From assembly GCA_963845755.1 (NCBI GenBank), contig CAWJTV010000028.1, positions 381,814 to 445,813 on the forward strand: DNA of 64,000 nt, read 5' to 3'. Under the pieces are notes generated by a model. That model saw only the letters and a list, made by a program, of their open reading frames with translations, ran no database searches and was not told the origin of the DNA. Made by a program: the position numbers and the translations under genes. The stretch is from an uncultured Planctomycetota bacterium. Its GTDB lineage: Bacteria; Planctomycetota; Planctomycetia; Isosphaerales; Isosphaeraceae. Below are positions 16,436 through 41,414 of the stretch, piece by piece. Within the stretch, counting starts at the first letter, position 1, and every line of letters begins with the position of its first letter.

Positions 16436-18648
16436 ATGGCGACGATTCTGGTTGTTGACGACCGGCCGGAGAATCGCGAATTACTCGTCGAGATCCTTGG
16501 CTTGTCGGGTTACGAGTTGCGCGAGGCGGCCGACTGCGCCGAGGCCCTGATGATCACGCGGCGCGACCGCCCCGACCTGGTGATCGCAGATATCCTCACA
16601 CCGAGGATGGACGGCTACGATTTCGTGCGCGAGGTGAGAGCCGACCGCACGGTTGCCTCTACCCCTGTGATCTTCTACACGGCCATCTATCGCCAAAGCG
16701 AGGCACGACTCTTGTGCAGAAATGCGGAGTGACCCACTTGCTGGCGAAGCCGGTGGTTCTGGAGGAGGTCCTGCGGACGGTAGCCGAGGTTCTGGGCACG
16801 ACCCGAAATGAGGAGACAGCCCCGACCGCCGGTGAGATCGAACGCGATCATGTGCGACTGCTCAACAACGCAATGTTGGAGAAGGTCCGTGAATTGGAGA
16901 TGGCCAACCATCGCCTGACACGGCTCATCGATCTCGGGAGATCACTGGCCCTGGAGGGTGATCTTTGTCGGCTGCTGGACCGATATTGTCGGTCCGGGTG
17001 CGACATGATCGGAGCGCGCTATGCCGTTCTGGGTGTGCTGGAGGAAAATGGGGAGGGGTTTGACGACCTCATGACCCACGGATTCGACTCCGAGTCGGCC
17101 ATCCGGCTGGACGGCCCATCGCCCGGCGAAGGTCTGCTGCGCCGCGTCGTGGTCGGAGGAGTGCCCTTGCGTGCCGGCGTCGGTGTCCAGGACCGTGTGC
17201 CGTACTTCTTCCCGGGTCATCCCCTGGCCGGAGCCTTCCTCGGAGTGCCCGTGGCCACGCCAGGGCATCGATACGGGGTGCTCGCATTCATCGATAAACT
17301 GGGCAACGACGAATTCGACGCCGACGATGAAGCGTTGGCCGTAAGTCTGGCGGCGCAGCTTGCCGTCGCGTACGAAGGCACGCGCCGTCAGACCGAACTC
17401 GCGCGGGGTGCCGCCCGCCTCGAACGTTATGAAGAACAGTTGGCCATCCTGCGACGGATCGATCAGGCGATCCTTTCGGCAAATCAGCCCCGAGAGCTCG
17501 CTTCCGCCGTGGTGCGCAATCTCCGCCAGCTCCTCGGCTGCTGGTCTGTCGGAGTCTGGGTCTTCGACTGGGAGACCCGGACGGCCGAGCGCCTGGCCTC
17601 GGAGGGTGCGACCGAGCTATTGCTGCCCCCGGGTACGAAGGTGCCCCTGGACGCACTCGATGTCCGAGACCTCGAGGCCCTCAGCGCGGGACAGGACCGG
17701 ATTATCGAGGACGTCTCGCTCTTGCCCGAACCGGCTCAGACGATTCGGATGCTCCAGACGGCTGGGCTCCGGTCGTACACCCGGATTCCGCTAGCCCTCG
17801 AGAGCCAGGTGATCGGCACGCTCGTGCTGAGCTCGGACCAACCCGGTTCCCTCGATGCGGAACAGCTCGGGATCGCCCACCAGGTTGCCGATCACCTGGC
17901 GATCGCCATGCGCCACGCGCTGCTATTTCACCAGGTGCGTACGGGAGGCGAGCGGCTGCGCACCCTCTCGCACCAGTTGCTCAAGGCCCAGGAGGAGGAG
18001 CGCCGCCGCATCGCCCGCGAGTTGCACGACGAGATTGGACAGTCACTGACGGCCGTGAAGATCAACCTGCAAGGGGCGACGGGCGGCAAATCGGCAAGGT
18101 CATCCTCGAGCTATCTCCGCGAGAGTGTTGGGCTGATCGACGTGGTCCTGCGGCAGGTGCGCAACCTCTCGCTCGACCTGCGGCCTTCGGTGCTGGACGA
18201 TCTGGGGTTGGCGGCCTCGGTGCGATCGCACCTGGACCGTACCTCGAGGCGCGCGGGATTCGTCGGGTCATTCGCGGCCGACCCTCCGGAGATCCGCCTG
18301 TTGCCCGAGATCGAGACCGAGTGCTTCCGCGTCGTCCAGGAAGCCCTGACGAACGTGGTGCGTCATGCCGGGGCACGACGGGTGGAAGTCACCTTGTTCC
18401 GGCGCGGCGACCTCCTGGAGCTGGTCGTCCAGGACGACGGGGCGGGATTCGACGTCGCCGCGGCACGGCGGCGCGCCGCCCGCGGCGGCAGCCTCGGGCT
18501 CCTCGGCATGCAGGAGCGGGCCGCCCTGCTCGGCGGCGCGATCACCATCGAAGCCGTCCCCGGCCGCGGCACCAAGGTCCACCTGCGCATCCCCCTGGCC
18601 GACCCGGGATCGTCGAGAGGCCCTGAAGGCGAAGAGGAACCCCGATGA
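16436..18648 (+). CDS. Hybrid sensor histidine kinase REC-GAF-GAF-HisKA_3-HATPase; frameshift near 16715
   Basis: ILVVDD...PDLVIAD...MDGY; two GAF domains; ERRRIARELHDEIGQSLT; QEALTNVVRH; DDGAGF; GLLGMQER. Confidence 0.92.
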
Positions 18649-19298
18649 CCGCCATTCGCATCCTAATCGCCGACGACCATACGCTTCTCCGCGCCGGCCT
18701 TCGAGCCCTGCTCGAAAACATGCCCGGCGTCGAGGTCGTCGCGGAAGCCGGGAACGGCCGGGAAGCTCTGGCTGCGGTCGAGGCCCATCGGCCAAGCGTC
18801 GTGCTGACCGACATCGCGATGGCCGAGATCAACGGCCTGGAGCTGGCCGAGCGGCTGGGCCGCGACTTCCCCGAGATCAAGACGATCATCCTTTCCATGC
18901 ACAACCAAGAGGAGTATGTCTGCCGCGCCATCCAGGCCGGCGCGGTCGGATACCTCGTGAAAGACTCCGGCACGGTCGAGTTGGGCCTGGCGATCCAGGC
19001 GGTCGCCCGCGGCGAATCCTATCTGAGCCCGTCGGTCTCCAAACACGTCATCGCCGACTACCTCCGCCGCACCGGCAGCGACCCGCACGGCCATGGCCTC
19101 CTGACACCCCGCCAACGCGAGATCCTCCGGTTCATCGCCCTCGGTCAGAGCACCAAGGCCATCGCCCGAACCCTGGGCATCAGTGTCAAAACTGTCGAAA
19201 CCCATCGCGCGCAGATCATGGATCGCCTCGACATCTACGACATCCCCGGGCTGGTCCGGTACGCCATCCGCAACGGCATGGCCGACCTCAACGCTTAG
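18645..19298 (+). CDS. NarL/LuxR family response regulator
   Basis: ILIADDHTLLRAGL; LTPRQREIL...TKAIARTLGISVKTVETHR; ATGA overlap with the kinase stop. Confidence 0.95.
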   Translation: MTAIRILIADDHTLLRAGLRALLENMPGVEVVAEAGNGREALAAVEAHRPSVVLTDIAMAEINGLELAERLGRDFPEIKTIILSMHNQEEYVCRAIQAGAVGYLVKDSGTVELGLAIQAVARGESYLSPSVSKHVIADYLRRTGSDPHGHGLLTPRQREILRFIALGQSTKAIARTLGISVKTVETHRAQIMDRLDIYDIPGLVRYAIRNGMADLNA

Positions 19299-19517
19299 AG
19301 GAAAGCCGGCTCGAGATCGGGGATTTTCTGATGCGTCCCTCAGAAAGCTCCCGAAGGACAGTCGCTGTTCAATTGGCGACAATCCTTCGTGGGCAAGAGC
19401 GACGAATCGACCGAATCATGCAGCGACTCGACCAGGGGCACCCGATGCTCGCCCGCGTGCCCTCACTCGGTCAAGATGAGCGGAAGACTTCCCTCGGCGA
19501 CGGAGTCGAAGGCATCG

Positions 19518-19898
19518 ATGAAGAAATCCAACTCGCAACGCATGCGTACTGGCGGGAGCCCGTCTTCCCGTCGATGGTCTGAGTCGGCTGGCCGCGGGTT
19601 CTCGCGACCCGCGCCCTCCGGAAAGACGTCCGCCTGGCCCGGGCGCGGCACTAGAGGAGGGCTCGAACCGTTTGAAGACGAACCGGACTGGATTCGCCGA
19701 GAGCTCCGTGCCCTGACTCTTGACTGCGATCGGGCAAGTTCCTATCTCGCGAAGCCCGGCTGCAACGTCGTGTTGGGGATGGCTCAGTTGGCGCGGACCA
19801 TGTTCAAGCGCTCCTGGATTCTCCGTTTCCTCCGAGATGACCGATCTCCCTGCGATGGTCGTGCCAACCTGTCCGCCGAACTCCGCCGGCCGATCTGA
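19518..19898 (+). CDS. Hypothetical protein
   Basis: ATG after GGAG; helical core RASSYLAKPGCNVVLGMAQL; lies within a + strand cluster. Confidence 0.45.
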   Translation: MKKSNSQRMRTGGSPSSRRWSESAGRGFSRPAPSGKTSAWPGRGTRGGLEPFEDEPDWIRRELRALTLDCDRASSYLAKPGCNVVLGMAQLARTMFKRSWILRFLRDDRSPCDGRANLSAELRRPI

Positions 19899-20029
19899 TC
19901 GTAAGGGAGGAAGCCGTGATCGCCCGAACCGAACCCCGGGCAACGACCAGCGAGGGTCCGCCCCTCGCCGCCGACAAGGACGTCGCATGTCCCCATGGGT
20001 CATCGGCGACCTTCCCCCGAGGAGGGCTC

Positions 20030-20401
20030 ATGCGACCTTGTCGAATTCTCCTGGTCGATGAGCATCACTTACTCCTGGAAGTCCTCAACCGGTTCCTCGC
20101 GGAGGTTCCCGGAATCGAGGTCGTCGCGTGCGCCAGCGACGGCCTCGAGGCGATGTCGTTAGCGGTCGCGCACCAGCCCGACCTCGTTGTCACCAACCTG
20201 GCCCTTCCCGGTCTCGGCGGCCTGGAGTTGACCCGCTCCCTGGCCGCGGGGCCACGTGCACCTCGCATCGTCCTGATGTCGTTCCACGACGAGTCCGAAT
20301 ACCGCCTCGCGGCCGACGCAGCAGGTGCCGACGGATTCATCCTCAAGCAGGAACTGGGCACGAAGCTCGTACCGATGATCCAGTCATTCATGGAAGAATG
20401 A
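20030..20401 (+). CDS. Single-domain response regulator receiver (degenerate)
   Basis: ILLVDEHHLL...QPDLVVTNLALPGLGGLE...GADGFILK; N occupies the usual phospho-acceptor D position. Confidence 0.85.
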   Translation: MRPCRILLVDEHHLLLEVLNRFLAEVPGIEVVACASDGLEAMSLAVAHQPDLVVTNLALPGLGGLELTRSLAAGPRAPRIVLMSFHDESEYRLAADAAGADGFILKQELGTKLVPMIQSFMEE

Positions 20402-20554
20402 AACGACTTGCAAGACCCAACGAATTCGCCATCCACGCCGGCGCGGGATGCGGGCTGCATGGCGAGCAATCGGCGGCGATCCCTCCTCCTGGGGTCGGCT
20501 CGGCCACTCTGGGAGTCCAACCCCTGCGGTCCACAGACCCGAGAGGAGGTGACG

Positions 20555-20983
20555 ATGTTAAGAAGCCAACGGAAGGAACAGCTCGGGATCACGCCAACTC
20601 CTCCGATCACCGCCGAGGACGACAGTCCCGACCGTCGAACTCTGCTCTACCTGCTGAGTTTCGTGCTGGCGGGCGTCGAGGGGATCCGTTCGACGCAAAT
20701 GACTCCCACGCCGACGCCGACTGAATGGCTCGAGCGCTGGGACGATGACGAATACACCTATCTTGAGGCGCGGATCCCCGGCGACGATTCGGAACTGGAA
20801 CTCGACCTGAACGTCGATAACGGAGTCATCTTCGCCCGAATTCGCCGTTCGACGCGCGGACTCGGTTGTCGAGGCCGGCCCAATCCACCCCGAGCGCCCG
20901 GGGCGGGCGGGCGAGGTGCGTGCGTGACTTGGAGACTGGGGCCCGGAGCCGGGAGGCTGGCCGATTGCGTCGGCAGGGCATGA
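20555..20983 (+). CDS. Hypothetical protein, possibly a truncated Hsp20-like beta domain
   Basis: Strong RBS GAGGAGGT; WDDDEYTYLEARIPG...LDLNVDNGVIFARI. Confidence 0.55.
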   Translation: MLRSQRKEQLGITPTPPITAEDDSPDRRTLLYLLSFVLAGVEGIRSTQMTPTPTPTEWLERWDDDEYTYLEARIPGDDSELELDLNVDNGVIFARIRRSTRGLGCRGRPNPPRAPGAGGRGACVTWRLGPGAGRLADCVGRA

Positions 20984-21034
20984 GCTTGGCCGCGGGGGCA
21001 AGGAAGCTCCCAGGCCGCCTCATCGCCCCCGGGC

Positions 21035-21563
21035 CTATTTCGCTGCAGTTACCCCGCCGGGCGCGCCCACCGAATCGTCCATCGGGTGTTCCCAGCGACA
21101 GATCATGTCGTAGTCTTCCAGGCGGAAGAACCAGACCGGGTTGCGGCCGAGAAGCGTGTAGCGGACCAGCGCGGGCGACTCCGCAGGCTCAAGATGCAAG
21201 CGAACTGTGAACTGGCGCGTGTTTTCGACATCCGACTGACCGAGAATCGCGAACGAGTTGAGCCGCTGATCGGGCCGCCGCTGTTTGTCCAGGAACTTCA
21301 CCGAGCTTGAATCGAAGGAAGCCGGCAACGGCGACGGGGCGTCGCGCCGTGCTCGGGGCCGATTCCAACGCCTGACGCGCCTCGGTCCAACCTGGCAGGT
21401 ATCCCGGCGGAGCCGGAGGTTTGTTCCACGCGTTGCAAGCGGACGTGCTGATGGCCCCCATCGCATAGAACGCCGGGTTGCCAAGCCCGCGAATCGGCAT
21501 GAGGAACATCGAGGATTCGACGTCGGCGTCGTGAGGTTCTTCATGGCGAGGAGATCCGGTCAT
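21035..21563 (-). CDS. Putative lipoprotein, paralog 1 of 3; frameshift near 21345
   Basis: STSAC...YLPGWTEARQALESA / FLDKQRRPDQRLNSFAILG...RQFTVRLHL...YTLLGRNPVWFFRLEDYDMIC; start uncertain. Confidence 0.75.
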
Positions 21564-21743
21564 GCGTTGCCGAGATCGGGTCTCGGAGATTTTCCGCAAG
21601 GCTCCTTGCGATTCTGACCGAACTGGGCTAGATTTGGAAGATTGAGTGCTCCAAGTGGTTCCCAATCCAAGTCTGTATCGACTCCCTTTTCGCCGGTTGG
21701 ATCCGGGACTCCACGTCCCGGATCGTTGGGACGATCCATCGCA

Positions 21744-22185
21744 ATGTTGCGCTTTCACGCTCGTCGATGGTCAGGCACCGCCGCCGCGGCATGTTTGATG
21801 CTCGCGACCCTGGCCGCGCTGTTACCAGCGGAAGCGCGCGGGCTGCGATCATCCATGGGTTAAGCGTACGGTCCTATCCGATACACTGAATGACCTGAGC
21901 GTCCTCGCGCCGGTCCGTCAAGGGTCAAGTTCCGATTCCGGTTTCCCCGACGAGCCCCGGCGCCGATCTCCATGCGCGGGGGGAATGTGTTCCCGATCGC
22001 CGGACATGCCGATGACCTCCCCGGACTCCACTCCGGACCGTGTCGAGCTATGGGGCAACCTGCCTGACAGTTTCCAGCCGAAGGCCCCTGCATTGACTGC
22101 GGCATGCCCCTTTCTGGATCGCCCGCGTCCGGCTAGGACGCTTCGACCTATCGAACGTCCTCCGCGCATGATCCCCCCCTTTTGA
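21744..22185 (+). CDS. Secreted Cys-containing leader protein ending in ERPPR (DUF2946/CruR-like); frameshift near 21840
   Basis: Signal MLRFHARR...LAALLPAEAR; shifted frame GCDHPWV...SPCAGGMCSR...LRPIERPPRMIPPF. Confidence 0.7.
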
Positions 22186-22521
22186 TTCCTCTCATCTCGT
22201 GGACTCAGCTGGTCGGATGACCAAGGGTCGGATTCTTGACTCGCGAGGAATGACACCCTCGACGAGTCGAAAGGCCCGGCGTGTCCATGTCGCAACATTC
22301 CTGACGTCTTTATTCGACCGAATTCTCGGGGCGTGATGCGTCCACGGATCGACGATCGGTCGGTCCCCGACCGTGCCGACGCGCACGGATCCCGCCCTTG
22401 TACCCCGGACTGGTGAGTACGTTTCGTTTGTGATTCATCTCGTATCCCTGCGAGCTGGGGGATGAGCCCGGTCTGGTCATCATCGTTTTTTTCGATTCTT
22501 CGTGCTTGAAGAGGTGCATAA

Positions 22522-23557
22522 ATGAAAAAGTTTCGAAGCGGTTTCACGTTGATCGAACTACTCGTGGTCATCGCCATCATCGCCGTCCTGATCGCCCTCT
22601 TGTTGCCCGCGGTCCAGGCGGCTCGCGAGGCCGCGCGCGGGCGCAATGCAACAACAACCTCAAGCAGATCGGGCTGGCCTGCCACAACTACTTGAGCTCT
22701 TTCCAGTGCCTGCCCTTCGGCAAGGGTGCGAGCTACACCAATGGGGCGCAATACTACGCTCGCTGGTCCACCCACAGTCAGCTCTTGATGTACATCGAGC
22801 AAGGGACTCTCTTCAACAGCATCAACTTCAGCCTTGCGCCATCAACGCCGGGCATGGCCGGTGATGTCGCGTTCATGCCCCCGTACACGCAGCCGGAGAA
22901 CCTGACCAGTTCATTGACCCAGGTGTCCGCGTTCCTCTGCCCGACGGACGCGACCGCGCCGACTCCCGGCTGGCCGGGCTGCAATAACTACCTCGGCAAC
23001 ATGCAGACCTGGGCCTGCGATCTGGGAGATAATAACCCCTCTCAGGTTTCCCCGGGCGATGCGCCCATGGGATCTTCTACTTCTGGAGCTCGGTGGGTCT
23101 CGCCAAGATCACGGATGGCACGAGCAACACGGCCTTCTTCAGCGAAAAACTGCGAGGCAACGGGACGCGAGACGGCGACGCCCGCTCCGACTCGCTGATC
23201 ACGGCGGCGCCGACTAGCCTGAATGCTACCTTCCAGACGTGCACGAGCACGCCGCTGACCGCCTTGCGGCTCACTCACGCCCAGGGCGCAAGTTGGGTCA
23301 TGGGCGAAATGTGCTGCACCCAGTATAACCACGTTTCCACTCCGAACACCAAGACCTGCGCCGGGCTGGGTTTTCTCAACAGCAACATGGCCAACATGCC
23401 GATGCAGGTTCCCCCTTCGAGCAACCATCCGGGAGGCGTGAACGTCCTCTTTGGCGACGGAGGCGCACGCTTCGTCAAGACCAGCGTTTCGCTCGTGACC
23501 TGGCGCGCCTTGGGCACGCGGGACGGGAACGAGACCATTTCCTCAGATTCGTATTGA
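22522..23557 (+). CDS. DUF1559 prepilin-type N-terminal cleavage protein with H-X9-DG C-terminus; 2 frameshifts (~22640, ~23070)
   Basis: [81 protein letters not shown]. Confidence 0.95.
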
Positions 23558-23568
23558 CGGGGGCTACC

Positions 23569-24033
23569 ATGCGAATTCTCTGGAACGAGCCTCGGCCGGC
23601 GATTCTTGCGGCTCTGTCACTGCTCCTCCTCCTGGGAACGGGGGGATGCGGGACCGGCAAGAGCGAGGGTTTACCCTCGGACGATGTAGGACGCCGGGCG
23701 CTCGAGGCGGCGCTAAACGTCTGGCGCGAGGGCGGAAAGACCGGGCCCGTGGCGGGCATGGAGCCTCCAGTCGAGGTCCACGACACGCCCTGGAGCCTGG
23801 GCGACCGCCTGTCCTCGTACGAGATCGTTGGCGAGACTAAGAGCGCCGCGGAGATGAGGTTCACCGTCCGGCTCTCGCTCGCCAAACCGGAGCGGGTGCA
23901 GGAGGTGCAGTATTACGTACTCGGCCGCGATCCGGTGATGGTCTTTCGCGATGAAGACTACCAGCGGAATATCAACATGGTAAACGGGCCGTCGGTCACC
24001 AAACCCGCGAAGTCGGGGAAGAGACGACGATAG
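23569..24033 (+). CDS. Putative lipoprotein, paralog 2 of 3
   Basis: Lipobox-like LLLLGTGGC; GRRALEAALNVWR; MRFTVRLSL; YYVLGRDPVMVFRDEDY. Confidence 0.85.
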   Translation: MRILWNEPRPAILAALSLLLLLGTGGCGTGKSEGLPSDDVGRRALEAALNVWREGGKTGPVAGMEPPVEVHDTPWSLGDRLSSYEIVGETKSAAEMRFTVRLSLAKPERVQEVQYYVLGRDPVMVFRDEDYQRNINMVNGPSVTKPAKSGKRRR

Positions 24034-24209
24034 CGCCCCCAGAGGGATCCGCACTCCTGGCACAGCCAGGGTCTTGTCCGCGTGGGGTGCGAAACCGCCG
24101 GACTAGCCACAGGCCGGGACAACTCTGTCACGCGCGATGCGATCGACCGGCGTGACACCACCGCTCGGCGCATCCGGAATGGCGACCCGGTTATCGAAGG
24201 GGACAACCC

Positions 24210-24738
24210 GTGAGACGGCATCCACCGACACCGCCAAGCACGAGCCTGATCATCGCAGCATTCGCGGCGATGATATGTCCGTCATGCGGCACGGTGGCTG
24301 CGCGAGAAGCCGCCGAGTTTGCTGCCCGACCCGCGGGTGGCCCGGCAAGCGGTCGAGAACGCCCTGGAGGAGTGGCGGGCCTCTCCCGATGTCGATACCA
24401 CGGCCGCCGACCGATCCCTGATCTTCGTGGATCGTCAACGACGACCGGGTCAACGCTTACGGGAATTCGCAGTCCTGGGGGACTCGGTGGTCGACAACCT
24501 CCGGCGTTTCGTAGTGAGGCTGTCCCTCGCGGAACCTGAGGAATCGACGCTCGCCGCTTACTACGTTTTCGGCCGTGTGGGCAACGACCCGATCTGGGTG
24601 TATCGTGCCGAGGAATTCGATATGATGATGAATATGGACATGGCGCCCGATGATCCGGCCCCGCCCGCGAACCCATCCAGGCCCCAGGGGTCGTCGAAAC
24701 CCGAGGCGGGGCGCCACCATGAGAAGAAGGCATACTGA
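24210..24738 (+). CDS. Putative lipoprotein, paralog 3 of 3, with Met-rich tail; frameshift near 24290
   Basis: LIIAAFAAMICPSC signal; LPDPRVARQAVENALEEWR; FVDRQRRPGQRL; RFVVRLSL; DPIWVYRAEEFDMMMNMDM. Confidence 0.8.
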
Positions 24739-26331
24739 CCGTGACGCGACGGGCGGTGGTCACCTTTCCGCACTTGCAACACGCCTGGGAAGGGGAATGG
24801 TGAGGATAAGGTCGATGGCGGGCGGCTCCGTCGGACACTGGATCTGGTCGGCCTTGCGATTAGCCGAGGTCCGACTGCGCGTTCCGATCGTGCTGGTCGT
24901 GGCCGCGGTGGTGATCGGCCGATGGGAGGTTATCCGCAACTACTGGGACCGTTTCACGCGATCCTCGACGGCCCAGAACACCTTCAAGCTCCCGATCTCG
25001 AGCGACACGGAATACTTCTGCCCGATGGATCCCGGGGTCGTGTCGCACGGTCCCGCGCGTTGCGGCGTTTGCAACATGGCGTTGGTCCGCCGCAAGCGCG
25101 GTGATGCGGTAATGCTGCCCGATGGGGTCGTCGCCCGGATGCAGCTATCGCCGTACCGGATCCAGCTCGCCGGCATCCAGACTGCTCCGTTGGGCTATCT
25201 CCCCCTGAACCGGGAGTGGTCCGCCGCGGGGTTGGTCACCCGCGAGGCCGATGACTCGGTAACCATCACGATGGATGTGCCCGGTCGTCAGGCGCCTTGG
25301 GTCGAGGAAGGTCAACGGGTCGACATCGCGTGTGCCGACCTCCCCGGCCAATGGCCGCTCACGGGCAGGATCCGATCGCTGCCGCGCCGCGTGGTTCAAG
25401 GGCGGGAATTTGCTCGTGTGACCGTCGCGATCGAGAAACCGCCGCAAACGCTCCGGGGCGGCATGATCGCGGTCGTGACATTCCGGATCGCCATGGCCGC
25501 GCTGGATCCGTTCCGCACGATGCCGAGCGGCCCGCCCGCCCGGAAGCGCGGGGAGCCGGGCGCATCTACCTCTGTCACGATCACCCGGAGACGATCGCCC
25601 TCGAGGCGGGACGCTGCCCGATCGACGGCAAGAACCGCATGCCGCAGACGTTGGGTGAACTGGAGCGGGTGCAATGGTGGTGTCCGATGCATCCGGAGGT
25701 CACCGCCGAGAATGCAGGCGCCGTTTGCGAACCATGCGGCGGGATGGTCTTGAAACCCAAGGTGGTCTTCTTCGCACCCAAGGGCCAGGTGCTGGCCCTG
25801 CAACAGTCGGCGGTAGTCGACACCGGCGTGCGGAAAGTGGTCTTCGTCGAGACGATGCCCGGTATGTTTGACGCAGTGGAGGTGGTCCTAGGACCGCGTT
25901 GCGGCGACTTCTACCCGGTCGTGCGTGGCATCGAGCCGGGCCAAGAGGTCGCGGTCGCCGGCGCCTTCCTGCTCGACGCCGAGACCCGGCTGAATCCTAG
26001 CTTGGCCGCCGGCTACTTCGGTGCAGGCCGTGGCGATCGTGCGGCCCACGGGGCGGCACCGGCGACCACTACGAGGCGATCTTCCCCCGCTGACGGCCCA
26101 TCCAACGCATCCGGCGATCCCTTCTGGGGACTGGATCCTGCGGATCGTACCCTGGCCCAAGGTCAGTCAAACTGCCCCGTCACGGGTCGGCCGCTGGGCT
26201 CGATGGGCACTCCCAAACGTTACGTCGTTTCCGGCCGGGTGGTATTCCTTTGCTGTGCGGGGTGCGAATCCCGGCTCCTTCGGGAGCCGGCGAAATACCT
26301 GGCAAAGCTGCCCGCCCCGGGTCGCCCATGA
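24719..26331 (+). CDS. CusB-like RND periplasmic adaptor with several heavy-metal-binding/YHS-like domains; frameshift near 25560
   Basis: YFCPMDP..CGVCNM; LSPYRIQLAGIQT; LRGGMIAVV; CPIDG; WCPMHP..CEPCGGM; SAVVDTG..GAFLLDAETRL; CPVTG...LCCAGC. Confidence 0.85.
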
Positions 26332-29300
26332 TTGACGCGGTCATCACGTTCTCGATCCGGCATCGGGCGGCTGTCATCGCAGCCAGCCTGCTCCTGGCCG
26401 CGCTGGGCGGCTGGGCCGTGTGGGATACTCCGGTGGACGCGATCCCGGATCTCTCGGAGAACCAGGTGATCGTCTTCACGGAGTGGAACGGGCATGGTCC
26501 GCGCGAGATCGAGGACCAGGTGACGTATCCGCTGACTCTCGGCCTGCGCGGGATCCGGGGCGTCCGGGTCGTCCGGTCGTCGAGCGACGTCGGCTTCTCG
26601 ACGATCAGCGTCATCTTCGAAGACGCGATCCCGGTCGCCGAGGCGCGACGGCGGGTAACCGAGCGATTGGCACAGGTCCAGGGGAAGTTGCCGGCCGGGA
26701 TTCTATCCGAGATCGCACCGGACTCTCCTGCAACCGGCCAGATCTTCTGGTACACGGTGGAGGGGGGCAAGCTCGACCTGGGCCGGCTTCGCGCGATCCA
26801 GGATTGGTATGTCCGCCCGCAGCTCGGCTCCGTGCCCGGCGTGGCGGACGTATCCAGCGTGGGTGGTTTCCCGATCGAGTATGAAGTGGCGCCGGACCCC
26901 GACCGGCTCCGGCTCTTCGGCGTGACGCTCCAGGAAGTCCTCGACGCCGTGTCCTCGTCGAACGCCGCGACGGGCGGCCAGGTGGTCAACAAGGGGAATG
27001 CGGAGTACGTGGTGCGCGGTGTCGGCTGGCTGGGGGCCTCTCCCAATCCCGGCGACGATTCGTTCGACCCTCGGCGGCGCGATCCGCGACCTGGAAAACG
27101 TCGTCCTCCGCGCACCGGGCGGAGGAACGATCCGGCTGGCGGACGTCGCGACGGTGGCGATCGTCCCCGGCTTCCGTCGCGGTGCCCTGGAGAAAGACGG
27201 CAGCGAGGCCGTCGGCGGCGTGATCCTGATGGCGCACGGCGAGAACCCGCTCGAGGTCACGCGCCGGATCAAGACGAAGATCCGCGAGCTCCAGATCGGC
27301 CTGCCGCGCGATGTCCGGATCGTGCCCTTCTACGACCGCACCCCGCTGATCGAAGGGGCCATCAGCACCGTCAGCGGCACCGTGCTGGAAGCAATGGTCT
27401 CGGCCTCGTTGTGCGTCCTGGTGATCTTGCTCCATGTGCGCACCTCGCTCGTCATCGTCGGCACGCTGCCACTGGCCGCGCTGTCGTCGTTCCTGATCAT
27501 GGGCGTCTTGCGACGGTCGGGCGTCGTGGACATCGCGGCCAACGCCATGTCGCTGGCGGGGATCGCGATCTCGATCGGCGTGCTGGTCGACTCGTCGGTC
27601 GTGATGGCCGAGAACGTCATGCACCGGCTCAAGGAGCGCTTCGGCCCGGAACCGGTGCGCGGCGACGTTCGCGAAGTGGTCTTGCCGGCCTGCCTGGCCG
27701 TCGGTCAACCCATCGTCTTCTCGGTGGCGATCATGGTGCTGTCGTTCCTCCCCGTCTTCGCACTGGGAGGTATTGAAGGCAAGATGTTCCATCCCCTGGC
27801 CTATACCAAGACATTCGCGCTGGCATCGGTCGCGGTGCTCGCGGTGACCCTGGTCCCGGCTCTGTGTACGCTCTTCATCCGAGGCCGACTGCGGTCGGAG
27901 CGGGAGAATCCGCTGGTCCGCGGCGTGATCGAGGTCTATCGCCCGGTCCTCTCTTTCTTGATGGATCGCCCGGCGGTGCTGGCCGGGATTCTGGGGATAA
28001 CCTTCCTCCTGGGATTCGCCCCATTGGGCAGCCGAACGATCTTCCTCGGTACGCTCGTCGTGGCGATGGTGGCGATGGCGGTCTGCGCGTCGAGCCGTTG
28101 GGGTGCGGTCCTGGGTCCCGCGTTTCTGGTACTGGTCGCACTGCTGATCGAACCAAGGATCACGCCTCTGATACGCGAATTCATGACGCCGCTCGACGAG
28201 GGAATGGTGATGGACATGCCCATCACGGTCCCGCGGGCCTCGGTATCGGAGTCGGTCGACGACCTGAAGGCGCGCGACATGGTCTTGTGCCGGTTCCCGG
28301 AGGTGGACATGGTCGTGGGCAAGGCGGGGCGGGCCGAGACGCCGACCGACCCCGCGCCGATGGACATGATCGAGACCATGGTGAATCTCCGGCCGCGCGA
28401 GTTCTGGCCGCGCCGTAAGCTCCGCGCATCCGATGCCTCCGCCCATTGCCTTGCGGTGCTCGATGCCTTGATCGCACGCCAGGTCGTCGCGCCGCCGGTT
28501 GACGCGCAGGCGCGCCGATCCCTCATCGAAGAGGCCGTCGCGCCGGCCTTGACGCAGTTCGACGCGATGTGCCGGGAGTATGCCTATCACCGCAATCAGG
28601 AATTGGTGCGCGAGTCGAGCGGCCTCTCTCCGACCTCGACGCACCCCTCGGATCCCGCCGAGCAGCGGCTGGTCGATCCCTGGCGCCGGCATGTGGAGAA
28701 ACTCGATGACGAACTGCTAATGCGCGCCGCCCCGCTCTTCACGCGGCTGGTGATGGACCAACTCCTGGAGCGTGCGACGATCATCGACCCGGCCGTGGCG
28801 GCGCATCACGCAAACGCGGTCCGCCTCCGTGCGGCGTCGGTCGAGGCCGCCATCTCGGCCATGACGAGGCGTCCATCCGCCATCGCTGGGCACCACCACC
28901 ATTCCGGCGGATATGCCTCGATCCCCCTGCTGGAGCCGCAGCCACAACTCGACGTCGTCCAGGAGGAGCTCTCCCGCCAGTTCAGCCGATGGTTGCTCTT
29001 GTGGCAGGTGGATCGGGACGAGTTGACGCGGTTCGGCGGCGAGCTGGACAATGCCGTCCCGATGCCGGGCTGGACGAACGTCTGGACGATGCCGATCCAG
29101 AACCGAGTCAACATGCTGACAACCGGCGTGAATTCGCCGATTGGCATCCGGGTCCTCGGACGCAACCTCGAAGACGTCGTCCGCGGCTCGGAGGAGGTTG
29201 CGCGGGTCGTGAAGGGCATTCCTGGGGCCGTTGACGTCGTGGCCGACCCGATCCGCGGCAAGCCTTACATCGAAATCCGGCTCGACCGCGAGCGGGCCGC

Positions 29301-30333
29301 CCGAGTCGGCGTTCGAGCCGGAGAGGTCAACGCGCTGATCGAGATCGCCCTGGCCGGCAAGGTCGTGGCGACGACCGTCGAAGGACGCGAACGACACTCG
29401 GTCGTCGTCCGCTATCCCCGTGCTCGTCGCGAAGACGAGGACTCGGTGCGGAACCTGCTCGTGACCGCCTACGGTGTTTCCCGCGGGCCAGCCTCGGGTT
29501 CGACCTCGACGCCTCCCGATCCGCCTTCGAGCCAGATCCCTCTCTCGGAAGTGGCCGAGATCCGCGTGGTCGAGGGGCCAGCAACAATCAAGGGTGAAAA
29601 TGGGCTGTTGCGCAATTATGTGAGGCTCAGTGCCCGCGGCCGAGATTTCGCCGACCTCGTCGAGGAGGCGCGCGCCGCCGTGGCTCGCGAGGCCCGTCTG
29701 CCCGACGGAGTTTATCTCGAGTGGACCGGACGGTTCGAGCACGAGCTCCGTGCCCGAAGGCGGCTAACCCTGGTCGTGCCCGTCGTGGTCGTCCTGATCT
29801 TCCTGATCCTCTACTGGACCTATCACGACGCGGCCGACGCCATGCTGATGATGCTGGCGGTGCCCGGCGCGATCGCAGGGGGGCTCCTCTTCCAATGGTT
29901 CCTGGGCTTGAAGCTCTCGGTGACGGTCTGGGTCGGCTACATCGCCTGCTTCGGCATGGCCACGTCGACCGGAATCATCATGCTCGTCTATCTGCGCGAG
30001 GCCGTCGAGCGCGCCGGCGGCCTGGAGCGGATCAGCCTGCAAGGGCTGCGCCAGGCGGTCCTGGATGGTGCCGTCCATCGGCTCCGGCCCAAGCTGTTGA
30101 CCGAAGGCACGGTCGTCATCGGCCTGGCCCCGATGCTCTGGTCCAGCGGAGTGGCGTCCGAGATCATCCGGCCCATGGCCGCCCCCGTCCTCGGTGGCAT
30201 CCTGGTCGCCGATGAAGTCATCGACCTGTTCTTGCCTATCTTGTTCTACTGGGTGCGCCGACGGCGGTGGTTGAGGCTGCATGCTCACAGCCGGATGGTT
30301 GAACCCGACGCTCAACCCATTCCTGAGTCCTGA
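26328..30333 (+). CDS. cusA: CusA/SilA-type heavy-metal RND permease (Cu+/Ag+); frameshift near 27075
   Basis: PVDAIPDLSENQVIV; EDQVTYPL; NAMSLAGIAISIGVLVD; EGKMFHPLAYTKT; Met-triad equivalents DMPIT, PMDMIET, NRVNMLTTG; RLRPKLLT. Confidence 0.93.
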
Positions 30334-30512
30334 GTTACGCACAGATACTGCACCCTTGCCCCGCGGGGGACCGGATCGGATCCGCCTCCTCAACCGCAAT
30401 TGGCCTGAAGATTGCAGTGATATGTGATTGTTGGCTCGGCCGATTTCGGTTGTCTCGGCCGTGACAATCTCCGTTGCACAACGACACCGATCTTCATGAG
30501 GGTTGAGATCCG

Positions 30513-30881
30513 ATGAGACGGTTTCTCCGCGTACTCCTCGTCGCCGGCCTGCTGGTCGGCGGCCTGATGTTCGGGACGAGCCCCGCCCAAGGCGGTCCCT
30601 TTCGCCGCGGCTGGGGCCCCTTTGGCGGGTTCGGGCGTTATCGCGTCTATCGACCGGCCTGGGGTTATGGGTATGGTGGCTATCGTCCCTACGGCTATCG
30701 TTACGGCTGGGGAGGATACGGGCTAGGGTATCCGGCCTATAGCTACGGTTATGGCTATCCCGGTTACTACAATCCCTACTTCGGCGGGATGGGAATGGGA
30801 TATCCGGGCTACTACGGTACCTCGGTATCGATCGGCGGTCCCTATGGTGGCGGGCTGTATGTCGGCTCCTACCCGTACTGA
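30513..30881 (+). CDS. Small secreted Gly/Tyr-rich protein
   Basis: Signal peptide ending PAQG; GYG/YPG low-complexity repeats. Confidence 0.8.
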   Translation: MRRFLRVLLVAGLLVGGLMFGTSPAQGGPFRRGWGPFGGFGRYRVYRPAWGYGYGGYRPYGYRYGWGGYGLGYPAYSYGYGYPGYYNPYFGGMGMGYPGYYGTSVSIGGPYGGGLYVGSYPY

Positions 30882-30983
30882 GTTCAACCCAAGGTCGGCC
30901 TGTACTCGCGTTATTTTCAAGAGGGCCAGGGTCGTCGGGTCAGCTCAGCCCGGACCTTGGCCCGCAAACGTCGAGTTGGAGGC

Positions 30984-33900
30984 TCACGGCTCGTTGAGAG
31001 CCTTGGCAACCACCGTCGCGATCGTGTTGGCGTGGACATACACCGCTTCCAGCTTGCCAGCCGGACCGATCAGGAAGACCGAAGGGATCACTTGAACGTG
31101 ATAAGCATCCTGAGCGCCTCCCTCAGGCCAGTCACCCAGGAAACCTTGTGTCCATCGGAGTCCTTGCTCAGCGGCGACGTTGCGTGATGCCTCCTTGTCG
31201 CCGTCGAGACTCAGGCTCACCATCGCGAATCGTTCGTCCGCGCCGAAGCGGTCATGAACGGCCTTGAGCTCGGGCAACTCAGCGATGCACGGCGCACACC
31301 AGCTCGCCCAGAAGATGAGCAACACGTGCTTGCCCCGATAATCCTGGAGCTTGATCCGACGACCATCGAGCGACGCGGCCTTAAACGGTGGTGCCAGCTC
31401 TCCGATCTTGAGCATCCGCCTCGGCCTGGGCCGCAGTATGCCGAGATCGAATGGCTGGCCACTCGCTGCGCCGGGGACCTCGGGAATGCGGAACTGGCGG
31501 AACGCGTGGGCGGTTCGTTCGGGAGACCGGACGCGCATAGAGATCGGGTCAGTCGTGTAGGTCAGTGTCAATTGGTAGTCTCCGGGTGGAAGGTCCTCAA
31601 CCCGAACGGTTCCGTCCGATTGGAGCGGAGCCCACTGAAGCTGGAACCAATCCCGGCGATATGCCCGTCCCTCGGGGGAGGCCCGCCATTTTCTGGCCCA
31701 CTCGATCATCGACCCATCGCGGCGGGCGAGGAGCTCTTGGGGATAGGGGATCATTGGTCGATCGCTCCCGATATTGAACGCGGAAAACGACGTATAGTCG
31801 GCATTCGGATCGAAGCCGAGAGGCGGCGCGATCCTGGCCACCAAGGCGCGACCTGATCCACCCATCTTGACCTGGGCCACTTCTCCGGACTTGACCTCGA
31901 CGAGCGTTCCGTTCGTTGATGCCTGAAGGCCTGACGCCCGCCTCTCGTATTGAAACGCAACCCGCACGTCTCCCGGGATGACGCGATCGAAGATGAAGCG
32001 GCCTCGTGCATCGGCTTTCGTCCTGCCTGAAGCCAAGACATAGGGTATGTCGCGATTGGCGATGCGATCGGAACCATAGCGGATCTCGGCACCCGATGCC
32101 GGCTTGGCCCCCGTGCGGGCGAACCCTTCGAGACGACCCCACGGACCGGCGGTGATCGTAGAATTCTTCTCGAGGGCCGCTCGATCGACCTCGGCATAGA
32201 ACTCGGGATGGACGACGATCACGGCCCACGCTTTCCCGGCGGGGCCGGGCTCGCGGAGGCTCCGGAAGCGTCCCTGAGCATCGGTCTTCACAATGGCCTG
32301 GTCCTCCACGGGTCGAATCTGACCATCCTCGATATGAACCCTGGGCAGGGGGGATGGACCCGCAATCATCGGATAGGTCACGACGACTTCCGCCCCTTCC
32401 AGGGGCGTGGCGTCGGGTCGGTGCACGATGCCCGTGACCAAGACGCCTTGCGGCTTCTCGGCCTTCGTCAGCTTGACGTCATATTCCACCTGCCCCTCAT
32501 CGCTCTGGAAGACGCGCGACTCGAACGGTTCGTACCCCTTCGCCTTGATCCGGAGCCGGAACTGGTTCGCCTTCTCGGTGTCGAGCGAGGCTTGCAGGTA
32601 TCCCTGGTCCACAAAGCTGCGCGAATTAGCATTCCACGACACTTTGCCGGTATCGCCTTTCACGATGCCAACCTCGAGCTCAGCCTTATCGATGGGATTG
32701 TCGGTAACGGCGTCGCGGACATGACCGCTGATCGACAGCTCGCGCCTGAGCGTCAGCACGATCTCACCGGAATCGGGCGTGGCCCTCTGCTGGAAGACAT
32801 CCGAATAACCGGTGCGACTGGCATCGACGAGAACGGGATCCGCCGGAGCATCCTCCCACCGAAACCGGCCGTCGGACCTGGACTTGAGGAACACCCTCGG
32901 AAATCGGCGGCCGCGCCAGGTGTCGATGTGGACGAAAGCGTCGGGGATCGGTCGATTCTGCGTATCCACCACCCGGCCCGCGAGGACATGCGGAGGTCCC
33001 AGTGTCACGACGACCGGCTCGACCCGGTCCGTGGCTGCAACCGGCTTCATCTCCGGCGCGTGGCCCCGGGCCTTGACTCGAAGCATCATCCGTTTCGGAC
33101 GAACGTGCGGAAATCGGAACTGCCCCTGAGCATCGGTGATCGACAAGGGCGCATCGTCGTAGGGGCCCGGGTCGCTCGCTTCAAAGCAGATGACCTCGGC
33201 GCCCGCGATCGGCTTGCCCGCCTGGTCCGAGACTGTACCGGCGATCGCGACCCCCCGGATCATGACCTGGCGATCCGTGAAATCGCGCAACGCCTGCATC
33301 GGCTGTTCGTCCGGCTTGGGTGGATTCGATGGCCTCGGCTGGCCGTGCTTCCGCGGATAGGAGTCCCCATCCGCGACATAATCCGGGTGCGAGAGGAAGA
33401 GGTAGGCGAACGTCATGTTGCGGAAGGAGCGGCCACGCCACCGGCCTTGCTGGTCGGTCTGAGCGTCCACCATCCAGGCCAGCTCATGTTTCTCCTTCTT
33501 CTCGCCGAGGTAGCCCGAGATCCGAACCTTCACTCCCGCCATCGGATGTCCCTGTTCATCAACGACCGTGCCACCCAGTGTTTGCTCGCTGGGCAATAAC
33601 TCGACCGTGAACTCCCCGGGGATCTTCGCAAATCGCGGATTGTTCTGGGCAAATGAGTGGCGCTGCTGGACGTAGCCCTCGGCCCAGACGTCGAGATTCA
33701 GCGTGTCCTGAAACGAGTCGTGGGACAGATTGATGCGGATCCGGCCGTCGCGGTCCGTTTTCCACTCCGGATGCACGAGATCCCGCGTGGAACGGACCGT
33801 CGCCGAGGCCAGCGGCTTGCCAGTGTCCTTGCCAACGACGATGACCTCGATCGCCCCTTGGGGTGCGTTGACCACGGTCTTCGCCTTCTCATCCGGCGTG

Positions 33901-35108
33901 GCCTGAGTTGTCTCCGGCGGCACAATGGCCTTCGTCGCCGCGCGGGCCAGCTCGATCGAGCCGAGCAACCCGGTGATGGCCAGGAGAACCGCGGCGACCG
34001 CCAGTCTCTCCGGCCACGGCAGCAGGCATCGCGACGATCCCCGGCTCTCCTCGATCCACGCCAGCCGCCGGCCGAGCTTCGTGATGTGCGCCATTGCCAG
34101 TCCAAGACCCGGTTCGGGTCGCCGGACCAATCCCGAGGCGACCGCGATCAATGACGCTCGGTACGCAGAAGCCCCTCCCATTGCAAAGATACACACGTCA
34201 TCGCACGCTTGTTCGCGCACCTCGCGGAGAATCCGGCCCAACGGCCAGATCAGCGGATGCGGCCAGTAAAAGATATGCACGAGCCTGCGCAACAGATTCC
34301 AGCCGTAATCCCCGCGACGGACGTGGCTCAGCTCGTGCAAGATCACCGCGTCAATGAGTCCGGCGCCCGGCGTCTCGGCCAGCGATCGGGGCAGGATGAC
34401 TGCCGGCTGAAGCCATCCGGCAGCGATCGGGATCGAGATCCGATCCGTGCTCATTAACGCGACACGTCGGGAGATCCCCATCCAGCTCCGCCAACGTTCC
34501 AGGGCCGCCAACCACCCCGAATTCTCGATCGACTCGCTCTCGCACCTCAGCCGGCCGATGGCCAGCAGCGAGACGGCCAGCCTCAGCAGGAGCAGGGCAA
34601 CGACTGAAAGATAGACTCCCACGAGCACCTCGAAAACTCCGGGTCTGCGGGTCGGATTCGATTCCTCGGCACTCGGCGGAGTGAGCATTTGCGGCTGCGC
34701 AATCCGCACCGGCGCGGGATCGATCGATGTCGCACTCCCGATTGCGGAGGCTTCAATCGGGCGAACTGCCCTCCGCGGCAACGATCGCCCAGGCAACCTG
34801 TGCGTTTCGGTCGTCGCCCGATCGTCGAGAAGTGGGATGCTCCGGACAAAATCGGCCGTCTCGTCCGAGGCGATCGCTCGGGGCGGGAGGACCGTCAGTC
34901 GCAACCGGGGCGATGCCCAACTCGTCAGGGGCAATACCACCAGTCCCGCCAGGCAGGCATTCCAGAGCGCCGAGCGGACCAGAACACGGCGACGCCCCAG
35001 CACGAGATGGGCCGCGAGGGCCAACGTGAGGAGCACCGTGGACTTGATCGCGACGTCGGTCGCAACGCCAATCGCCTCTGGAAAAGCCAACCTCAGGAAA
35101 TCGACCAT
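30984..35108 (-). CDS. BlaR1/peptidase M56 family protein with carboxypeptidase-regulatory-like repeats and C-terminal TlpA thioredoxin
   Basis: N-terminal TMs; ILHELSHVRRGD; WPHPLIW; REQACDD; repeated GxVxDxxGxPIxGA...TDxxGRF; FWASWCAPC. Confidence 0.92.
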   Translation of the reverse strand: MVDFLRLAFPEAIGVATDVAIKSTVLLTLALAAHLVLGRRRVLVRSALWNACLAGLVVLPLTSWASPRLRLTVLPPRAIASDETADFVRSIPLLDDRATTETHRLPGRSLPRRAVRPIEASAIGSATSIDPAPVRIAQPQMLTPPSAEESNPTRRPGVFEVLVGVYLSVVALLLLRLAVSLLAIGRLRCESESIENSGWLAALERWRSWMGISRRVALMSTDRISIPIAAGWLQPAVILPRSLAETPGAGLIDAVILHELSHVRRGDYGWNLLRRLVHIFYWPHPLIWPLGRILREVREQACDDVCIFAMGGASAYRASLIAVASGLVRRPEPGLGLAMAHITKLGRRLAWIEESRGSSRCLLPWPERLAVAAVLLAITGLLGSIELARAATKAIVPPETTQATPDEKAKTVVNAPQGAIEVIVVGKDTGKPLASATVRSTRDLVHPEWKTDRDGRIRINLSHDSFQDTLNLDVWAEGYVQQRHSFAQNNPRFAKIPGEFTVELLPSEQTLGGTVVDEQGHPMAGVKVRISGYLGEKKEKHELAWMVDAQTDQQGRWRGRSFRNMTFAYLFLSHPDYVADGDSYPRKHGQPRPSNPPKPDEQPMQALRDFTDRQVMIRGVAIAGTVSDQAGKPIAGAEVICFEASDPGPYDDAPLSITDAQGQFRFPHVRPKRMMLRVKARGHAPEMKPVAATDRVEPVVVTLGPPHVLAGRVVDTQNRPIPDAFVHIDTWRGRRFPRVFLKSRSDGRFRWEDAPADPVLVDASRTGYSDVFQQRATPDSGEIVLTLRRELSISGHVRDAVTDNPIDKAELEVGIVKGDTGKVSWNANSRSFVDQGYLQASLDTEKANQFRLRIKAKGYEPFESRVFQSDEGQVEYDVKLTKAEKPQGVLVTGIVHRPDATPLEGAEVVVTYPMIAGPSPLPRVHIEDGQIRPVEDQAIVKTDAQGRFRSLREPGPAGKAWAVIVVHPEFYAEVDRAALEKNSTITAGPWGRLEGFARTGAKPASGAEIRYGSDRIANRDIPYVLASGRTKADARGRFIFDRVIPGDVRVAFQYERRASGLQASTNGTLVEVKSGEVAQVKMGGSGRALVARIAPPLGFDPNADYTSFSAFNIGSDRPMIPYPQELLARRDGSMIEWARKWRASPEGRAYRRDWFQLQWAPLQSDGTVRVEDLPPGDYQLTLTYTTDPISMRVRSPERTAHAFRQFRIPEVPGAASGQPFDLGILRPRPRRMLKIGELAPPFKAASLDGRRIKLQDYRGKHVLLIFWASWCAPCIAELPELKAVHDRFGADERFAMVSLSLDGDKEASRNVAAEQGLRWTQGFLGDWPEGGAQDAYHVQVIPSVFLIGPAGKLEAVYVHANTIATVVAKALNEP

Positions 35109-35109
35109 C

Positions 35110-41256: not shown

Positions 41257-41414
41257 GATGATCCTCCTCCCCGATTCGATCGTGTGGGAATCTGACTTCC
41301 CAATCGACGGGAACTCATCGTATCCTGAGAATGCCAGGTTTTCTGGTCCCTCGCCAGTTGCGCCCCGAAGAGACGCCCACCGGAACTCCTCACAACACCA
41401 GACCGGATGATTTT

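Follow-up and report, generated by a model that had tools for sequence, protein, structure and literature searches.

Positions 21035-30333 of a 64,000-nt stretch of DNA from an uncultured Isosphaeraceae bacterium (the window) carry a cluster of envelope genes in which a pilin-like DUF1559 protein stands beside a CusA-like RND pump. The window is the final 64 kb of a 446-kb contig of the source genome (G000), a 14.3-Mb assembly in 49 contigs with a completeness of 87.9%. We place a probability of about 0.5 on the reading that the cluster is an intact, conserved Isosphaeraceae envelope system for copper, probably Cu(I)/Ag(I), composed of two co-inherited units. The first unit would be a type-B lipoprotein, an adaptor and the CusA-like RND pump, and the second would be an exported Cys-motif leader, a dedicated DUF1559 protein and a type-A lipoprotein. 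Genes were called from six-frame translations combined with Pfam and NCBIfam scans, and 81 Isosphaeraceae genomes and 24 others of the same class were sampled overall. The cluster consists of the following features.

21035-21544, − strand: lipoprotein 1, a type B paralog with the tail ...CRWEHPMDD; its N-terminal third runs in other frames to ~21600
~21744-22185, + strand: small exported Cys-motif leader with a signal peptide, a Cys directly after it, PCx4CS and a terminal (E/D)RPPR
22522-23557, + strand: DUF1559 pilin-like protein (N_methyl PF07963, PF07596, TIGR04294), read in three frames
23569-24033, + strand: lipoprotein 2, type A, with the lipobox GGC and the tail NINMVNGP...KRRR; an uninterrupted open reading frame (ORF)
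24210-24738, + strand: lipoprotein 3, type B, with the tail FDMMMNMDM followed by a His-containing end; signal peptide and mature part lie in different frames
~24797-26331, + strand: membrane-anchored CusB-like periplasmic adaptor with an HMBD (PF19335)
26328-30333, + strand: CusA-like HME-RND permease, with E. coli CusA as its best solved relative

The gene run proposed in an earlier sequence-only reading of the window is present, with the leader, DUF1559, two lipoprotein, adaptor and RND genes on the + strand and the third lipoprotein gene divergent from them. That reading also described overlapping junctions from lipoprotein through adaptor to permease. The adaptor and permease genes do overlap by an ATGA, the arrangement of translational coupling, and whether lipoprotein 3 and the adaptor overlap turns on which start codon is used: ATG 24650 gives an 89-nt overlap and ATG 24797 a 58-nt gap.

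Co-inheritance of the cluster genes

The intact lipoprotein 2 was searched in 61 related genomes and homologs were found in 34. Up to 19.9 kb around the best match was taken from 20 genomes, and the window proteins were mapped on these loci. Of these 20 loci, 15 combine DUF1559 with one or two lipoproteins, the adaptor and the RND permease. The G015 locus has the adaptor and no RND match, the G035 and G033 loci hold DUF1559 and two lipoproteins only, and two further loci hold only distant DUF1559-lipoprotein pairs. The lipoprotein-adaptor-RND genes are divergent from the DUF1559-lipoprotein genes in 9 of the 15 complete loci, and all genes are co-directional in the other 6, as in the window.

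The phyletic distribution ties the DUF1559 ortholog to the adaptor, in counts where the related genomes are not independent of one another. An adaptor ortholog was found in 45 of the 81 Isosphaeraceae genomes and a DUF1559 ortholog (≥61% identity) in 39; all 39 lie within the 45, and none of the 36 adaptor-negative genomes has one. The orthologs of G000 and G029 were missed by this search because they are split by frame breaks. The DUF1559 and adaptor genes are ≤6 kb apart on one contig in 32/39 genomes, on different short contigs in 4/39 and unlinked in 3/39. Across genera the distribution is patchy, with the adaptor in 30/53, a pattern that implies repeated gain or loss of the two genes together. 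The co-conservation that the sequence-only reading had put forward as its first check is thus borne out, both in the 15 complete loci and in a DUF1559 ortholog that occurs only with the adaptor. A CusF-domain gene is present in 75/81 genomes, with or without the cluster. G097 carries two copies of the DUF1559-adaptor linkage (C1:1262079-1265623 and C5:280524-283659).

Named genera with adaptor homologs are Paludisphaera, Singulisphaera, Tundrisphaera and Aquisphaera, and lipoprotein homologs are named in Paludisphaera and Tautonia. The flanking genes vary among relatives and include those for ribosomal protein S2 and EF-Ts, a glycosyltransferase, an extracytoplasmic function sigma factor and a protein kinase. 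No outer-membrane factor (OMF), P-type ATPase or multicopper oxidase was found among 35 flanking ORFs of the relatives.

The pump unit and the lipoproteins

The window permease matches E. coli CusA with E = 3.4e-151, and its intact ortholog at L054 scores 685 bits (E = 2e-204) with CusA and 436 bits with the zinc pump ZneA. NCBIfam assigns the pump to the broad CusA/CzcA family only; the two window pieces score 228.5 and 633.6 bits against TIGR00914, each below the 701-bit cut-off and above it in sum. The Cu(I)/Ag(I) methionine triad of CusA, which we take to be M573, M623 and M672, was mapped by counting to chain positions 580, 630 and 679, corresponding to a 7-residue tag offset. Alignments to CusA place Met at all three positions in the window permease and in the L054 ortholog, in agreement with the triad claimed from the sequence. 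The permease has an insertion of ~190-240 aa after the equivalent of CusA residue 644 (~200 aa in the window copy, ~28410-29040), which includes an HHHH run in the window copy and is absent from the other HME-RND paralogs of G000. A search of the G002 ortholog's insertion against PDB sequences returned chance-level matches only (E ≥0.5). At L024 of G057, a genome from a different family in the class, an RND gene with 66% identity to the pump has a gene of the cluster's lipoprotein family directly behind it, and judged by this similarity the pump-lipoprotein linkage extends past Isosphaeraceae in a different gene order.

The adaptor contains the HMBD, two further Cys/His modules and a C-terminal Cys-rich module, and its Cys/His positions are invariant in 39 sequences. 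Its homologs are labelled Cu(I)/Ag(I) efflux fusion proteins by their sources, and two are labelled YHS proteins. Matches to hidden Markov models are weak and below cut-offs (HlyD_D23, 21.6 bits; TIGR00999, 48.6 bits), and the best NCBIfam match, CzcB/NccB, reaches 48.6 bits against a 319-bit cut-off. An AlphaFold2 model of the intact L054 adaptor (mean predicted local distance difference test score, pLDDT, of 81.4) has a long N-terminal membrane helix, the HMBD, all-beta domains and the C-terminal Cys-rich module. The model has no alpha-hairpin, and DSSP assigns residues 100-385 just two helices, 117-123 and 160-163. Foldseek ranks CusB (3ne5_C, E = 9.5e-9) first for the model, then ZneB and SilB, and the predicted beta-barrel and lipoyl domains resemble those of CusB. 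The hairpin-less BesA (4kkt) is among the ten best fold matches and has the highest target-normalised TM-score of the adaptor matches (0.37-0.39). A hairpin-less adaptor can work with a TolC-type channel, as BesA of Borrelia exemplifies. Pump and adaptor are both modified forms of known types. The label "atypical CusBA" given to the cluster earlier is apt on three counts, namely the hairpin-less modelled adaptor, a conserved Cys-motif leader before DUF1559 and orthogroup-specific Met/Cys motifs in DUF1559.

The three lipoproteins are paralogous, as had been proposed, with 36-47% identity by tblastn (45-47% between lipoproteins 1 and 3). They fall into two subtypes. Subtype A follows the DUF1559 gene and has the tail NMDNNP...KRR. 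Subtype B precedes the adaptor gene, and its tail bears a His/Trp/Met motif with the consensus HWEHKMD; runs of His often come after it. Among 18 type-B tails, His occupies position 1 in 14, Trp position 2 in 13 and Met position 6 in 13. The motif is replaced by a Met-rich string, (M)MNMDM or QMDTM, in lipoprotein 3 of G000 and in the type-B copies before the adaptor in G001 and G032. The sequence-only reading singled out Met clusters in both lipoprotein 3 and DUF1559, and the sequence does contain them, as FDMMMNMDM and NMANMPM respectively. The lipoprotein 3 ortholog of G001 is intact (L039:9803-10342). Lipoprotein 1 has intact orthologs in G015, G027, G029 and G009 and no counterpart in the same-genus G001; it may be a decaying copy, because its N-terminal third needs several frame changes and G001 is without the gene.

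Searches of the lipoproteins against Pfam and NCBIfam gave no match, and none of 106 lipoprotein 2 homologs has a Pfam family except one that is fused to PF07596. In the ESM Atlas, lipoprotein 2 falls in unnamed Planctomycetota clusters, and the nearest named family, DUF3828 (0.81), serves as a lead only. The AlphaFold2 model of lipoprotein 2 has a mean pLDDT of 85.7, which rises to 95-98 over residues 41-130. VIA-align returned 40 chains with Z ≥5, nearly all NTF2-like. The best of the NTF2-like matches has Z = 6.1 and a root-mean-square deviation of 3.5 over 89 residues, a middling score of a kind that may reflect a common structural arrangement only in the predicted fold. Foldseek returned no chain at E ≤0.001 for the same model. 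Cut-down adaptors were considered as an identity for the lipoproteins and set aside, with no adaptor chain among the 50 matches listed in each fold search, a result that does not exclude the idea by itself.

These features suggest how the pump unit would work. The most likely task of the pump is to expel Cu(I)/Ag(I) via the methionine relay of CusA, and the inner-membrane-anchored adaptor would bring its own metal-binding modules. The type-B lipoprotein, with its flexible His/Trp/Met tail, is most likely the CusF-like part that catches periplasmic metal and passes it to the adaptor and pump.

The leader and the DUF1559 protein

A conserved small gene lies in the 600-1000-bp gap before DUF1559. 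Its product has a signal peptide followed directly by a Cys, then PCx4CS and, after a further ~57 residues, an (E/D)RPPR that lies 3-6 residues before the stop. C35, C78 and C83 do not vary across 11 aligned sequences, nor does the P-R of RPPR, and the leader is intact in G001 as a 147-aa ORF (L039:7310-7750). A regular expression for the leader has 68 matches in G000, and only one of these, the cluster leader, is followed within 700 nt by a pilin-type start (0.17 expected by chance). Searching nine leader orthologs against Pfam at E ≤10 returned nothing apart from one chance MASE1 match. The accessible part of a survey of CutF-like proteins (bioRxiv 2022.11.11.516240) defines them operationally by a signal peptide, a Cys/His motif, PP in the last 15 residues and a same-strand gene <1000 nt downstream, and the leader falls within this definition. 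The same part of the survey reports that CutF-like proteins most often precede OEP, RND, CusB and CusF genes and that such leaders head both efflux and uptake genes (bioRxiv 2022.11.11.516240). Like CutF or CruR, the leader is most likely a sensor that detects periplasmic copper while it is itself exported and translated, and it would gate the two genes behind it.

The window DUF1559 protein has a prepilin N-methylation motif (PF07963, E = 3.3e-9), a DUF1559 domain (PF07596, E = 1.4e-20 and 6.8e-13 over profile positions 9-105 and 157-265) and a C-terminal H-X9-DG motif (TIGR04294, E = 9.1e-8). Its orthologs are intact and share 63-85% identity across genera, compared with 38-47% for ordinary paralogs. 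A CC pair in the sequence GEMCC (GENCC in L050) is found in 17/17 orthologs and 0/7 paralogs. Directly before the His of H-X9-DG, the motif MxNMxM is present in 17/17 orthologs, is weaker in the two closest paralogs and is missing from the five distant ones. Complex predictions for the G030 DUF1559 protein (residues 30-350) with lipoprotein A (residues 25-142) were discordant between runs (0.46, 0.00 and 0.00) and used alignments of 23 rows for DUF1559 and 26 rows for the lipoprotein. The most likely role of DUF1559 and its lipoprotein partner is auxiliary to the pump: they would bind or relay copper within the periplasm or at the outer membrane.

No paralogous family in planctomycete genomes is larger than DUF1559; the accessible literature counts 74 genes for Rhodopirellula baltica and 68 for Planctopirus limnophila and reports that two of them are essential. 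The accessible portions of papers that mention DUF1559 assign the family no function. Elsewhere in G000 (C41:614190-619674), a DUF1559 gene 57% identical to the cluster orthogroup has two lipoprotein-family matches beside it, and a group of DUF1559 paralogs with 53-59% identity recurs in many genomes of the family.

The neighbourhood of the cluster was also annotated. Directly 3' of the RND gene, 30513-30881 (+) encodes a small secreted protein of nearly all Gly/Tyr/Pro repeats with no family match. It is followed at 30984-35225 (−) by the gene for an intact 1413-aa protein with a BlaR1-type M56 peptidase, CarboxypepD_reg repeats and a C-terminal thioredoxin/AhpC-TSA domain; this protein adjoins the cluster in G001 too, and weaker relatives lie near the G035 and G033 modules. 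Two DDE transposase genes stand around a truncated beta-lactamase-family gene that covers only profile positions 3-149 of 329 (49703-51349, 54099-54752 and 55085-56341). Upstream, a two-component kinase (16714-18648) and regulators (18645-19298 and 20027-20401) were considered as regulators of the cluster and rejected; they are adjacent in 2/20 loci (G001 and G015), and the Pfam scan gave the kinase no periplasmic sensor domain. A search of positions 19500-31000 against Rfam at E ≤1 gave 0 matches.

Reading frames, exit route and known systems

At least seven frame changes fall within the 9.3-kb cluster, a higher density than elsewhere in the window. They lie in the leader (~21840), DUF1559 (22637 and 23066), lipoprotein 3 (~24300), the adaptor (25557) and the RND permease (~27070), and at one or more places in lipoprotein 1. 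We read the breaks as assembly errors because a short-read contig repairs one of them, the ratio of nonsynonymous to synonymous substitutions (dN/dS) is 0.10-0.32 and other genes are split too. Alignment to the closest genomes, G001 and G032, shows that 22637, 23066 and ~25557 are single-base gaps in G runs. The contig, from a soil metagenome, equals 25394-25659 with 0 mismatches over 266 nt and has an extra G behind 25557 that restores the adaptor frame. In the read comparison, 8/26 matching pieces of run X1 were ≥99% alike at a depth of 2-4.5, runs X2 and X3 gave mostly 90-95% look-alikes from other organisms, and near-identical cover was absent at 21840, 22637, 23066, ~24300 and ~27070. Against G001 or G032, eight gene pieces have a dN/dS of 0.10-0.19 and lipoprotein 3 one of 0.32, with both sides of the breaks covered, which indicates purifying selection. 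No in-frame stops were found inside the gene pieces. The breaks are not confined to the cluster, because elsewhere in the window a sigma-54 activator gene (GAF-PAS-AAA; 2005-4031, −) is spread over three or more frames, and a DUF7133/HEAT/cytochrome c gene (41331-44808, +) over two. Three of the five other HME-RND paralogs of G000 are also split, and G001, G029 and G032 have their own breaks at different places. GATC occurs within ~8 nt of 3/6 located breaks (21840, 23066 and 27076), which would fit methylation-linked basecalling errors. The RND break (27060-27080; equivalents at L039 ~12735-12750 and L042 ~9810-9825) has 10 nt between the ..FD(P/Q) and IRDLE.. codons where intact orthologs have 9 or 12, and it lies in a GC-repeat beside GATC with both halves under purifying selection. 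This break could be a systematic long-read error or real recoding.

The opposing explanation, that the cluster consists of decaying pseudogenes in the source organism, would account for the dense breaks, for the N-terminus of lipoprotein 1 and its absence from G001 and for an RND break common to three genomes. We consider it highly improbable in view of the low dN/dS on both sides of the breaks, the pieces free of in-frame stops, the single-base gaps in G runs at 22637, 23066 and 25558, the adaptor frame restored by the short-read contig, the breaks in unrelated window genes and other RND genes, the different break sites of G001 and an assembly that is 87.9% complete in only 49 contigs.

The outer-membrane exit route is not encoded in the cluster. 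No OEP (PF02321) match was found on the whole 446-kb contig, and the sole CusF domain of G000 (PF11604) lies on contig C33, fused to SCO1/SenC; the window is therefore without a TolC/CusC or CusF gene, as the sequence-only reading had stated. An OEP gene occurs within 30 kb of the cluster in 0/11 genomes, the nearest being 34 kb off in G032, so an OMF is not part of the orthologous clusters; its consistent presence there would have told against that reading. Each of the 11 genomes has 16-46 OEP domain matches elsewhere. Other HME-RND paralogs of G000 have an OEP gene within ~5 kb in 3/5 cases and none linked in 2/5. The sole CusF domain is 1-3 kb from an OEP gene in 5/5 genomes checked, and in three annotated loci the gene of a CusF-SCO1/SenC fusion lipoprotein converges on that of an orphan OMF, which has neither an adaptor nor an RND gene as a neighbour. 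The orphan OMF means that an unlinked exit duct is available. These loci are C33:341200-344890 (L059), L060 (G002) and L061 (G034), and they are flanked by DUF1501, WD40, creatininase and glutamate dehydrogenase genes. We consider an unlinked OMF somewhat more likely than none.

As one alternative, the cluster may hold two mechanistically separate copper modules, a tripartite CusCBA-like pump with an unlinked OMF and a leader-gated DUF1559/lipoprotein module for uptake or surface capture, the latter copper-repressed like CruR-controlled uptake genes and the two kept together for homeostatic co-regulation only. The divergence of the units in 9/15 loci, their separation in G035, G090 and G088, the DUF1559-lipoprotein pairs without a pump in L057, L058, L031, L033-L035 and L037, the orphan OMF beside the CusF-SCO1 gene and CutF-like leaders that head both efflux and uptake genes in the accessible part of the survey (bioRxiv 2022.11.11.516240) would suit it. 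We regard this arrangement as possible but unlikely, since the DUF1559 ortholog is missing from all 36 adaptor-negative genomes, the DUF1559 unit is co-directional and immediately upstream of the pump unit in 6/15 loci, lipoprotein A directly precedes the adaptor in L050, L053 and L055, and the CusF/OMF locus has no phyletic tie to the cluster. A second alternative dispenses with the channel, so that copper would be handed to the lipoproteins and a DUF1559 pseudopilus-like structure and stored or carried to or through the outer membrane in place of CusC. The missing OEP linkage in 11 genomes, in a source genome where OMF linkage is common among the other HME-RND paralogs (3/5), the adaptor model with no helix longer than 7 residues between 100 and 385, and strict co-inheritance of DUF1559 with the adaptor, next to a CusF-domain gene kept in 75/81 genomes regardless of the cluster, all point that way. 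It is nevertheless distinctly unlikely in our judgement, given the two other HME-RND paralogs that also have no linked OMF, the many OEP matches of each genome, the presence among the fold matches of BesA, which works with a TolC homolog, the lack of pilus-assembly genes in the cluster and protein contacts that are purely hypothetical. Its boldest form is doubtful to a slightly greater degree, namely that a hairpin-less CusBA pump gave up its TolC-type channel and that copper-gated DUF1559 and NTF2-fold lipoproteins carry Cu(I) across a wide periplasm or out of the cell; if true, it would provide a pilin-based distal leg for an RND pump and a first function for DUF1559. That the substrate is another metal (Zn, Co, Ni or Cd) or a non-metal, with incidental Met/His/Cys motifs, is improbable. 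NCBIfam does stop at the broad CusA/CzcA level for the pump and gives CzcB/NccB as the best match of the adaptor (48.6 versus 319 bits), and His-rich tails bind Ni and Zn too. Against this stand the ~250 bits that separate CusA from ZneA, the Met residues at the triad positions and the Met-rich motifs in three further cluster proteins. The cluster most likely handles copper.

Several observations weigh against the reading of the cluster as an intact two-unit copper system. The lipoproteins are unlike CusF, with no Pfam match and a predicted NTF2-like rather than OB fold, and the NTF2-like fold is uninformative on function because the matches are only middling. The leader locus gave no DUF2946 (PF11162) match in 5 genomes at E ≤1, its C-terminal motif is RPPR and not RAPP, and the leader-DUF1559 spacer of 81-468 nt is longer than in CutF. 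The DUF1559 and pump units are unlinked in G035, G090 and G088, and 4 of the 45 genomes with an adaptor (G012, G066, G094 and G095), all of them incomplete (54-78%) or fragmented, yielded no DUF1559 ortholog in the search. Read support for assembly error comes from one contig at a depth of 2.7 that covers 1 of the at least seven breaks, and the RND break at ~27070 is identical in G000, G001 and G032, which random error does not explain.

The significance of the two-unit copper system, if it is correctly read, lies mainly with DUF1559. One DUF1559 orthogroup is now tied by phyletic co-occurrence and close linkage to a pump with a guessable substrate. The orthogroup carries candidate metal-ligand motifs and follows a candidate copper-sensing leader, which provides a testable copper link for the large DUF1559 family. 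The cluster is also a natural case in which to ask how an RND metal pump operates when its adaptor is hairpin-less and no channel is linked, and cultured carriers make these ideas directly testable. The accessible literature on DUF1559 and on planctomycete CusA, pilin-like proteins and copper does not describe a leader-DUF1559-lipoprotein cluster; the supplements of the CutF survey may list such pairs.

The closest known relative of the pump unit is CusCFBA of E. coli (CusA 3k07 and 3ne5). The two systems share an RND permease closest to CusA, an adaptor fold closest to CusB, ATGA-coupled adaptor and permease genes and, immediately before the adaptor gene, a gene for a small periplasmic protein with a metal motif. 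Unlike CusCFBA, the cluster has no CusC or CusF in any of the 11 genomes. Its adaptor is membrane-anchored, hairpin-less in the model and equipped with the HMBD, two Cys/His modules and a C-terminal Cys-rich module, and its permease has the ~190-240-aa insertion. The small protein is a lipoprotein with a predicted NTF2-like fold and not an OB-fold CusF, and a DUF1559 gene, a second lipoprotein gene and a leader gene are co-inherited with the pump. BesA of the Borrelia BesABC pump (4kkt) shares the missing alpha-hairpin with the modelled adaptor at an identity of 6%. Unlike that adaptor, BesA carries no metal-binding modules, and it is part of a multidrug pump to which a TolC homolog is linked.

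CutF (cutFOG of Rhodobacter capsulatus) and CruR (Bordetella pertussis) are copper-sensing upstream ORFs of the DUF2946 family. The leader resembles them as a small exported protein with a Cys motif and a Pro-rich, positively charged motif in the last 15 residues; its gene, too, is set among metal-efflux genes, with an envelope gene <1000 nt behind it on the same strand. It differs from them in having no DUF2946 match, a Cx4C instead of a CxxxC motif, the RPPR end and the 81-468-nt spacer, and the gene that follows it encodes a DUF1559 pilin-like protein. The DUF1559 protein has the same domains as the other DUF1559/SBP_bac_10 (PF07596) H-X9-DG proteins of Planctomycetota and is followed directly by the gene for a ~145-aa lipoprotein. 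Compared with ordinary DUF1559 proteins, this orthogroup is more conserved, has its own CC and MxNMxM motifs and is tied to one pump.

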